Below are positions 13,758-16,700 of a stretch of DNA of 64,000 nt, piece by piece. Source of the DNA: Escherichia coli (GTDB lineage Bacteria > Pseudomonadota > Gammaproteobacteria > Enterobacterales > Enterobacteriaceae); the NCBI RefSeq assembly GCF_003334815.1, contig NZ_QOWO01000015.1. One strand, given 5' to 3'. The position numbers and the translations under genes were made by a program. The number at the start of each line of letters is the position of its first letter. Position 1 is the first letter of the stretch. The notes below the pieces were generated by a model. It searched no databases. It saw only the letters and a list, made by a program, of their open reading frames with translations, and was not told the origin of the DNA.

Positions 13758-16700
13758 TTACTCAACAGGTTGCGGACGCGCAGGAGCGGCAGAGGCATGA
13801 TGTGTTGCCGTATGACCACCTGCGGCACCTTTACCTTCGAAGGCAAAAGTAGGGCGCTGCCAGTCACTGTGACGCGGTGCCTCCGGAACATATTCCGGTG
13901 CTGGAGCGCGCGTCATTGGCGCGGTAGCGTGGTTATGCTCAACGGTGACCTCAGGTTCGACCGCAGCTACCGTTTCAACTTCTGCTGCGACTTCAGCGAC
14001 TACTGGCGCGGCAGGTTGAGCAACAACTTCAGGTTCAGCAACTACAACCTCAGCAGTTTCGACAACTTCTTCAATATCTGCCGTCTCTTCCTGCGGTTCA
14101 ACCACCGGTTCTGCTTGTTCTGCAACTTCCTGGGCTACGGCAACATCAGACTCGGTAATCACCTGCGGCTGTTCAGTTACCGCGGCAGCGATCACTTCAG
14201 GATGCGTCGTTTCAACCACTTCCGGTTGCGGTTCGGCAACCTGAACGGGGGCTTCTACGACACCGGCCACTTCTTCAACAACTGGCGCGCTAACAACCGG
14301 TTCGATAGCGGCGGCGACAGGGACCTCAGTCACCATCGGCTGCACATGTACTTCTTCCTGTTCGCGCTGCTCTTCAACCTGTACATCTTGCGGACGTACA
14401 ATTGGATAGCGGATCCAGACTTTGCCAGAGGCCAGTTCCGGAGACGCGCACGCTACGGTCAACGGCATTGGCGACTGGGTTGGATAACGCTCGTCACGAT
14501 AGCGACGACGACGCTGACCACTTACGCGCAGGTGACGAGGCGAGCGGCGAGAACGACGCGGCATGCCACCGTTGTCACGGTTATCAGCATTGTTCTCTTC
14601 TTGCTGTTCTGGTGCAGTTTGCGCTACGACTGGCAGCGGGACTTTCACCAGTTCTGTGCGTGGAGCTGGCGCTTCCTGAACAATTGGTTCGGCAGCGACA
14701 GTTTCTTCAACCACCGGTGCGACTACCGCTTCTTCGGCTACGCTTTGCTCGTAACGCACTTTCTGATTGAGCTGACGCTGTTTACGACGCGGCTGAACCG
14801 GACGTACACGTTCTTCCTGTTCGGTTTCCTGAACAGATTGCTCTTCAACATTCAGCGCCTTCGCTTCTTGTTGCGCCTGACGTTTATCATCATTACGGCG
14901 GCGGCTACGTTCACGACGCGGCGCTTGCTGCTCGTCGGCGGTACGCGCTTTTTCCGTTACCTCAGCCTGCTGACGGCTCTCACGCGTCTCGGCAGTCTGC
15001 TGCTGTGCCTGGCGACGATTACGACGGTTTTCTTCGCGATTATCGCTGCCTTCAGTACGTTCACTACGGGTGTCGCGGCGCTCATTACGGTCACGGCGGT
15101 TGTTCTGACGAGGCTTGCGACGATCCTGTTGACGTTCCGGTTTCGCTTCTGCTTTCGGTGCTGGTTGCTCGGTCGGTTTGGTTTCTTCACCACCGCTGAA
15201 CAGCGCTTTCAGTGCGCCGAAGAAGCGGCTCAACAGCCCAGGTTGTGCAGGAGCTGCTGGTGTTGCCGGTGCAGCTTTCGGTGCTGGAGCTACAACAGGC
15301 GCGGCAGGTTCAGCTGGCGTTGGCGCAGGCGGCACATCCGGCATGGCAAAGGTTGCCAGCGCAGGTTGTTCCGGACGCTTACGTTCAGCGAACTCTTCTT
15401 CAGACGGCAGCGCCATCGCTTCTTCATGCAGCTTCGGCAGCATGTAGCTTAAGGTTGGGGTTTCTTCCCCTTTACGCACGCGCAGCACGTGGTAGTGCGG
15501 GGTTTCCATCTGATCGTTTGGCACAATTACACAGCGCACACCGTCCTGACGAGTTTCAATGGCATTTACCGCAGAACGTTTTTCATTCAGCAGGTAAGAA
15601 GCGATTGGCACAGGAACAATGGCGTGAACTTCCTGGGTGTTCTCTTTCAGCGCTTCTTCTTCGATCAGACGCAGAATAGAGAGCGACAGCGATTCGTTGT
15701 CACGCACGGTGCCAGTACCAGAACAACGCGGACAAACGTGATGACTGGATTCACCCAGTGATGGGCTCAGGCGCTGACGGGACATTTCCAGCAGGCCAAA
15801 GCGAGAAATATGGCTGATTTGAATACGCGCACGGTCCTGACGCACCGCTTCACGCAGACGGTTTTCTACCGCACGCTGGTGGCGTACTGGCGTCATGTCG
15901 ATGAAGTCGATAACAATCAGGCCGCCGAGGTCACGCAGGCGCAGCTGACGAGCAATCTCATCGGCAGCTTCGAGGTTAGTGTTAAACGCGGTTTCTTCGA
16001 TATCGCCGCCGCGGGTCGCGCGTGCGGAGTTGATGTCGATGGCCGTTAACGCTTCGGTGCTGTCGATAACAATGGAACCACCAGACGGCAGACGAACTTC
16101 ACGCTGGAAGGCGGACTCGATCTGTGACTCGATCTGGTAGTGGCTGAACAGCGGGATCTCGCCGGTGTACAGTTTGATTTTGCTGCTGAAATCCGGGCGA
16201 CCTAATGCAGCGATATGCTGACGTGCCAGTTCGAGCACTTTCGGGTTATCGATAAGGATTTCGCCGATGTCCTGACGTAAGTAATCGCGGAATGCGCGAA
16301 CGATTACGTTGCTCTCCTGATGAATCAGGAACGGGGCCGGGCGGCTTTCAGCGGCTTTTTTGATGGCTTCCCAGTGTTTCAGACGGAAGCTTAAATCCCA
16401 TTGCAGCGCCTCAGCAGATTTGCCGACGCCAGCGGTGCGCACGATAAGCCCCATGCCTTCCGGCAGTTCAAGGCTTGCCAGTGCTTCTTTTAATTCGGTA
16501 CGGTCGTCGCCTTCGATACGGCGAGAAATGCCACCCGCGCGCGGGTTGTTCGGCATCAGAACCAGATAGCTACCCGCCAGACTGATAAAGGTGGTTAATG
16601 CCGCGCCTTTGTTGCCGCGCTCTTCTTTATCGATCTGAACAATGACTTCCTGACCTTCACGCAACACATCTTTAATGTTGGGACGACCATGAGCACTGTA

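Follow-up and report, generated by a model that had tools for sequence, protein, structure and literature searches.

The gene for ribonuclease E in this stretch of Escherichia coli DNA contains, on the opposite strand, an open reading frame of 560 codons, and the question that it raises is whether so long a frame marks a second gene or is cast by the first. We are almost certain that it is a shadow (phantom) ORF of rne and not a gene, as a reading of the DNA letters made earlier (the sequence-only reading) had also proposed. The frame relation, the codon counts and the expected numbers of stops were all computed directly, as was the absence of conservation, purifying selection or a coding signal in the antisense frame.

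The rne locus and the geometry of the antisense frame

The minus-strand ORF at positions 13758..16943 of the window (the whole stretch of 64,000 nucleotides that was analysed) is rne, encoding the RNase E of E. coli K-12, with 1061 amino acids and a stop codon. Its product matches the NCBIfam equivalog model for RNase E, NF008074, over residues 1-1061 with 2008.4 bits against a cut-off of 908, and the Rne/Rng catalytic domain (TIGR00757) is found in the N-terminal half, at aa 13-425, with 570.8 bits. Upstream of the gene, at 16968..17304 on the minus strand, lies the rne5 leader (Rfam RF00040; 260 bits, gathering score 180), a known autoregulatory element in the rne 5' UTR. Identity to K-12 strains BW2952 and BW25113 is 100% over the segment 13758..15452, as it is to K-12 genomes over 13600..15600; all 5426 complete E. 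coli genomes have a match to the rne tail region, whose sole annotated feature in the E. coli records that were listed or fetched is rne. The setting of the locus is that of the flgK-flgL / rne region of E. coli K-12. The parts of the gene referred to below are the following.

13758..16943, minus strand: rne, ribonuclease E, 1061 aa plus stop (ORF list, NF008074, annotation)
15357..16943, minus strand: catalytic half of RNase E, aa 1-529 (TIGR00757; boundary from PMC4435900)
13761..15356, minus strand: non-catalytic scaffold half, aa 530-1061 (composition and entropy; disorder according to PMC4435900)
15240..15329, minus strand: Pro/Ala-rich linker, aa 539-568 (motif check)
15198..15251, minus strand: membrane-targeting sequence, aa 565-582, represented by a 16-residue motif (range from PMC4435900)
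15012..15134, minus strand: Arg-rich RNA-binding segment AR1, aa 604-644 (range from PMC4435900; strongly basic, hydrophilic windows)
14502..14558, minus strand: Arg-rich segment AR2, aa 796-814, which contains an 11-residue motif (name and range from PMC4435900)
13944..14393, minus strand: acidic Ala/Glu/Pro/Val-rich region, about aa 851-1000, of the lowest complexity in RNase E (entropy and charge)
13761..13883, minus strand: PNPase-binding site, aa 1021-1061 (range from PMC4435900)

The antisense frame and its two bounding stops are placed as follows.

13770..15452, plus strand: antisense ORF, 560 codons, TTG start and TAA stop, opposite rne residues 1058 down to 498 (ORF list)
15450..15452, plus strand: stop codon of the antisense ORF, a TAA formed as the reverse complement of the Leu498 TTA in rne (frame analysis)
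13752..13754, plus strand: in-frame stop immediately beyond the rne stop codon, at which the 565-codon stop-free stretch begins (frame analysis)

The ORF is thus present as the sequence-only reading had listed it, with 560 codons from a TTG, and lies wholly within rne; the stop-free stretch to which it belongs comprises 565 codons between the plus-strand stops at 13752 and 15450. Its start and the first base of the rne stop codon are 12 bases apart, a frame offset of 0, so that each antisense codon is the exact reverse complement of an rne codon. In a frame aligned in this way antisense stops are possible only opposite the sense codons TTA, CTA and TCA. The rne gene has 11 such codons, all of them in residues 1-498 and none in residues 499-1061, the last being the TTA of Leu498. 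The opposite strand had been described as free of stop codons over this interval, which holds for the codon-aligned frame; the remaining two antisense frames carry 21 and 8 stops over the same stretch, so that one of the three is open.

Composition, codon choice and chance

The non-catalytic region of RNase E is intrinsically disordered and has a bipartite composition bias, with an Arg/Asn/Gln-rich part near the catalytic domain and an Ala/Glu/Pro/Val-rich part distal to it, and it contains short binding motifs: the membrane-targeting sequence, AR1, the helicase site, AR2, the enolase site and the PNPase site (PMC4435900). The tail analysed here has the same two composition zones and the same motifs as those described for gamma-proteobacterial RNase E, and the protein is in fact the K-12 reference protein itself. 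Low complexity of the C-terminal half, which the sequence-only reading had also claimed, is borne out by computing complexity along the protein: 71% of residues 499-1061 are Ala, Glu, Val, Pro, Arg or Gln, as against 42% of residues 1-498, and Shannon entropy, computed per 50 aa, falls to 2.5-3.8 bits in the tail from 3.5-4.0 bits in residues 1-498. It is lowest in the acidic region at about aa 851-1000 (2.5-3.0 bits per 50 aa), where the net charge is -0.12 to -0.30 per residue; a charge-hydropathy proxy for disorder in the tail gave a mixed outcome for this Val-rich acidic part. Three of the four motifs that had been quoted as examples are exact, namely the 11-residue motif at aa 796-806, the Pro/Ala stretch at aa 539-568 and the Val/Glu stretch at aa 958-1002, while the fourth had been given one Arg too long and is actually an 11-residue motif at aa 811-821.

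What matters for the opposite strand is the scarcity of two residues. Leucine makes up 2.7% of the tail and 10.0% of the front half, and serine 3.6% and 6.6%; the catalytic half (residues 1-498) has 50 Leu and 33 Ser. The 15 tail leucines (residues 499-1061) are encoded by 12 CTG, two TTG and one CTC, and the 20 serines by eight AGC, seven TCT, three AGT and two TCG. With Leu and Ser together making up just 35 of its 563 residues, the low-complexity scaffold half offers few openings for antisense stops; TTA, CTA and TCA are seldom used in E. coli in any case, and in the K-12 lineage 0 of the 35 Leu and Ser codons happens to be one of them. Together these three circumstances leave the frame open from the TTA of Leu498 to just past the rne stop. 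Compositional periodicity, to which the open strand had been attributed, is a different matter: Tandem Repeats Finder returned a single 24-base two-copy match and nothing else in 13700..15500, and the depletion of Leu and Ser is the cause that we put in its place. Tandem repeats in the RNase E tail are described at the protein level (PMC4435900), whereas at the DNA level none is significant here.

The size of the effect can be judged against the other long ORFs in the window, of which 50 were taken as genes, rne being left out. In these, TTA, CTA and TCA together make up 2.35% of codons, so that a 563-codon stretch of average composition would be expected to have 13.3 antisense stops, with a probability of none, P(0), of 1.5e-6. 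Once the tail's own Leu and Ser counts and local codon usage are entered, the expectation falls to 3.9-4.5 stops and P(0) rises to 0.008-0.015, by a formula from Leu/Ser counts and codon usage that is the one published for the codon-aligned frame (10.1101/724807). Composition alone thus lowers stop density about three-fold, which is part of the effect only; the final step to zero stops is chance or rare-codon avoidance, with P of about 0.01 under a uniform codon model. The main point of the sequence-only reading, that the long antisense ORF follows from composition and requires no second gene, is supported by this fall in expected stops from 13.3 to about 4, and by the lack of conservation described below.

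A probability of this order, low if taken on its own, is not exceptional in the window. When the 51 window genes were ranked by synonymous resampling, three had P < 0.01: ptsG (P=0.0013), a fragment of purB (P=0.003) and, in third place, rne (P=0.009). Since ptsG and the purB fragment are more extreme than rne, the uniform codon model is too simple and rne does not stand out. These two cases, in which gene-specific codon bias alone yields an even stronger apparent avoidance of stops, also lend something to a reading in which the final step owes nothing to chance, namely that TTA, CTA and TCA are missing from the tail because selection on the sense strand avoids rare codons for smooth translation of a long disordered region, the open antisense frame being a side effect. 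The same point has been made for highly expressed genes (10.1101/724807), and the tail does use these codons less than the catalytic half (0 of 35 against 11 of 83 Leu and Ser codons; Fisher p=0.03). The homologues in related species bear directly on this reading and are considered next.

Conservation, selection and coding signal

Conservation of the open frame was examined in rne from 80 Enterobacterales species and from 18 further E. coli genomes, the latter representing 16 distinct alleles. The full antisense frame is open in ten of these 16 alleles. In five it is interrupted by stops, at five different places, and a sixth has an in-frame deletion of aa 743-945 with the loss of 203 codons. 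Stops arise both by synonymous changes (Leu770 CTG>CTA; Leu581 CTG>CTA; Leu570 CTG>CTA together with Leu571 TTG>TTA) and by amino-acid changes to Ser TCA (Ala554>Ser in O104:H4 and Pro594>Ser in UPEC 536), and the exact Leu770 CTA haplotype is present in at least 16 of the 5426 complete E. coli genomes. Among close relatives there is one antisense stop in a divergent E. coli, five in E. albertii, three in Salmonella and four to six in Citrobacter. At least one antisense stop lies beyond codon 500 in 76 of 79 Enterobacterales orthologs, or in 75 of the 79 if a slightly later boundary is taken; it is the latter figure, with the five E. coli alleles, that answers the check on conservation proposed with the sequence-only reading.

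Across the 79 full-length orthologs the tail has 432 antisense stops, against the 263 that codon usage in the catalytic half would predict, and three orthologs lack an antisense stop in the tail where nine would be expected. Extended open frames turn up here and there among the orthologs, as in Klebsiella oxytoca (704 codons), Pantoea piersonii (673) and Pluralibacter gergoviae (605), and close relatives of these species carry stops, K. michiganensis having two; such sporadic recurrence is as expected of a composition effect together with chance.

We also considered selection across the family to keep the frame open, and reject it given that the orthologs have more antisense stops than expected.

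The excess of stops tells equally against the avoidance of rare codons on the sense strand, as the orthologs use TTA, CTA and TCA more in the tail, TCA rising from 6.7% of Ser codons in the catalytic half to 14.2% in the tail across all 79. Within E. coli the synonymous CTA and TTA changes listed above segregate, and the sense coding score of the rne tail (0.321) is below that of the front half (0.458). We therefore regard sense-strand selection as an unlikely account of the missing codons, albeit one to which the codon bias of ptsG and purB gives some substance.

Selection on the protein level was assessed by Nei-Gojobori dN/dS for rne in both frames against 13 orthologs. In the sense frame the tail has dN/dS of 0.09-0.21, indicating purifying selection, and in the antisense frame the values are 0.67-1.56, so that the purifying selection which would have spoken for a gene is not seen there. 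A synonymous change in the sense frame alters the first base of an antisense codon, so that constraint on an antisense protein ought to reduce sense dS. No such reduction was found in the tail in the between-species pairs by this method: in all six of the between-species or deep pairs sense dS of the tail equals or exceeds that of the catalytic half (0.59 against 0.40 for E. albertii), and in pairs within E. coli it is higher in three and lower or about equal in four. Neither purifying selection nor stop avoidance could thus be found in the antisense frame by dN/dS, in the 79 orthologs or in the 16 E. coli alleles.

Codon usage, the other property proposed for checking, gives no coding signal either. 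Under a codon model built from the window the antisense ORF scores -0.173 bits/codon. Other shadow frames with the same codon alignment reach 0.020 +/- 0.084 and the real genes of the window 0.315 +/- 0.113, the lowest of them at 0.018, so that the ORF is below every real gene. In the predicted product Arg would account for 15% of residues, Phe for 13%, Cys for 4.3%, Trp for 3% and Lys for 0.4%; the product has no match in Pfam even at E<=10 and none in NCBIfam, and the exact protein, from either start, is absent from a collection of 15 billion proteins.

These results weigh on another rival of the shadow ORF, a young Escherichia-specific gene overprinted on the scaffold region of rne and translated at a low level. 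A length of 560 codons, with a probability of about 0.01 of no stops, and a frame intact in ten of 16 sampled E. coli alleles are what such a gene would show, and there are reports of antisense overlapping genes from E. coli (PMC9927249, PMC5960689). Set against this are five independent breaks and one large deletion within the species, O104:H4 and UPEC 536 included, a frame broken in every close relative, an antisense dN/dS of about 1 with no reduction of sense dS between species, a codon score below that of ordinary shadow frames as well as of real genes, and a composition unlike that of a protein, in addition to the missing database matches. We consider an overlapping gene highly improbable, and the signals for its expression, to which we now turn, do not improve its standing.

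Expression signals and comparison with known overlapping genes

Two terminator-like structures lie in the region between flgL and rne.

13604..13632, plus strand: flgL terminator-like hairpin with T-run
13715..13738, minus strand: rne terminator-like hairpin with T-run, 32 bases upstream of the first start codon of the antisense ORF

The flgL hairpin would be expected to halt plus-strand transcripts ahead of the antisense ORF. A consensus scan, which can miss weak or alternative promoters, found no sigma-70-like site from 13640 to 13770, and across the region such promoter-like matches are about as frequent as in shuffled sequence, with one found and 0.9 expected. The sole positive hint is a GGAG, weakly Shine-Dalgarno-like, located 10 bases upstream of an ATG at 13797 within the antisense ORF, and it is one of the points that would fit an overlapping gene. 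In the literature consulted on antisense genes and transcripts rne goes unmentioned. This includes one survey by ribosome profiling of antisense genes in E. coli, in its text and in 18 supplementary files, a weak indication since the survey may use other identifiers. We infer that the antisense product is not made.

Translation of only part of the frame, such as from the ATG at 13797 with its GGAG, at a low level in K-12-like strains, seems to us similarly improbable. If it did occur, the low-level product would be a very young proto-gene on a mutationally tolerant, disordered part of rne, with no detectable selection as yet and freely lost in other strains.

The plus strand might also act without being translated, as a functional non-coding antisense RNA on the rne mRNA, in which case the ORF would be irrelevant. 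Transcription of flgKL is convergent with rne, and antisense transcription is described as widespread in E. coli (PMC10392735). Transcripts entering from flgL would meet the hairpin and T-run at 13604-13632, however, and beyond it there is no promoter-like site; the plus strand has no Rfam match, rne5 being the only RNA family nearby, and synonymous sites in the tail vary as freely as in the rest of rne. We give a regulatory RNA of this kind very little credence, and return to the shadow ORF as the reading that the data favour.

Frames of this type have a precedent. Long antiparallel ORFs in prokaryotes are unlikely to encode essential proteins (10.1101/724807), and the frame -1 shadow ORFs described in that study have the same frame relation as the rne ORF and obey the same TTA/CTA/TCA rule and the same formula for P; they too have neither conservation nor purifying selection. 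Quite different are ano, laoB and asa of E. coli O157:H7 and two overlapping genes of Pseudomonas aeruginosa (PMC8850804), which are likewise long ORFs antisense within an annotated gene but are backed by ribosome profiling, promoters, phenotypes or purifying selection. The rne ORF, unlike any of these, is broken repeatedly within its species and has a dN/dS of about 1.

Shadow ORFs of this class, like the tail of RNase E, had been described before; the finding is an ordinary one, and knowledge of RNase E and of overlapping genes is unchanged by it. Its use is rather that of a control case, in which a low-complexity region poor in Leu and Ser gives rise, on the opposite strand, to a very long frame that resembles a gene when seen in an ORF track. 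A shadow of this kind can be told apart from a genuine overlapping gene by four checks: how the two frames are aligned, how many Leu and Ser codons there are and which, whether the frame is open in close relatives too, and dN/dS in the two frames. Within the class, the rne ORF differs from those opposite genes of the ptsG type in what keeps it open, for amino-acid composition is its main driver, with about three-fold fewer stops, whereas in the latter it is strong codon bias; and it is unusually long because the biased region itself extends over 563 codons.

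Antisense frames of ptsG and purB

The rne tail is not the only place in the window where a codon-aligned antisense frame, which meets stops only opposite sense TTA, CTA or TCA codons, lies open. The ptsG gene (30446..31879, plus strand) uses just one of these codons among its 477, and because of this its antisense frame contains a stop-free run of 374 codons. The chance of so few under synonymous resampling (P=0.0013) makes ptsG statistically more extreme than rne, and the source of its open frame is codon bias, not composition. The partial purB gene that lies at the edge of the window (63193..63993, minus strand) has none of the three in 266 codons (P=0.003), and its entire antisense frame is therefore open.

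Codon choice and length of the rne tail

Among the rne genes of the Enterobacterales loci, TCA accounts for 14.2% of serine codons in the scaffold half vs 6.7% in the catalytic half, a higher share which suggests that codon selection is weaker in the disordered half of RNase E. The tail of E. coli 2021CK-00607 has a 4-residue in-frame deletion (aa 981-984 missing) within the acidic Val/Glu stretch, showing that the low-complexity region varies slightly in length inside the species. We also note that E. coli GN4738 (NZ_CM177114.1) carries an rne at locus positions 1958..4534 that is annotated as an intact RNase E of 858 aa; residues 743-945, equivalent to about 14109..14717 of the window, are lost in-frame, and with them go the Arg-rich segment AR2, the site where enolase binds and a large part of the acidic Ala/Glu/Pro/Val region.

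Surroundings of rne

The hairpin that follows rne (13715..13738) has a terminator-like score on either strand, with a T-run behind it in the minus-strand reading only. Two further elements are placed as follows.

13604..13632, flgL's own hairpin and T-run
16968..17304, minus strand, rne5 (Rfam), the known autoregulatory element of the RNase E 5' UTR, full-length and upstream of rne

Between flgL and rne, certain E. coli strains carry a pair made up of a GNAT-family acetyltransferase and a DUF1778/TacA-family antitoxin.

L088 (E. coli locus), 936..1720, acetyltransferase and antitoxin pair
L095 (E. coli locus), 684..1468, the same pair
L098 (locus of 2021CK-00607), 683..1467, the same pair

In all three the pair is a type II toxin-antitoxin module, and its place corresponds to the intergenic gap 13563..13757; the window itself does not contain this module. 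Plasmid-labelled records, rather than chromosomes, hold five of the 5426 rne matches among E. coli genomes, and these five may be mislabelled replicons.
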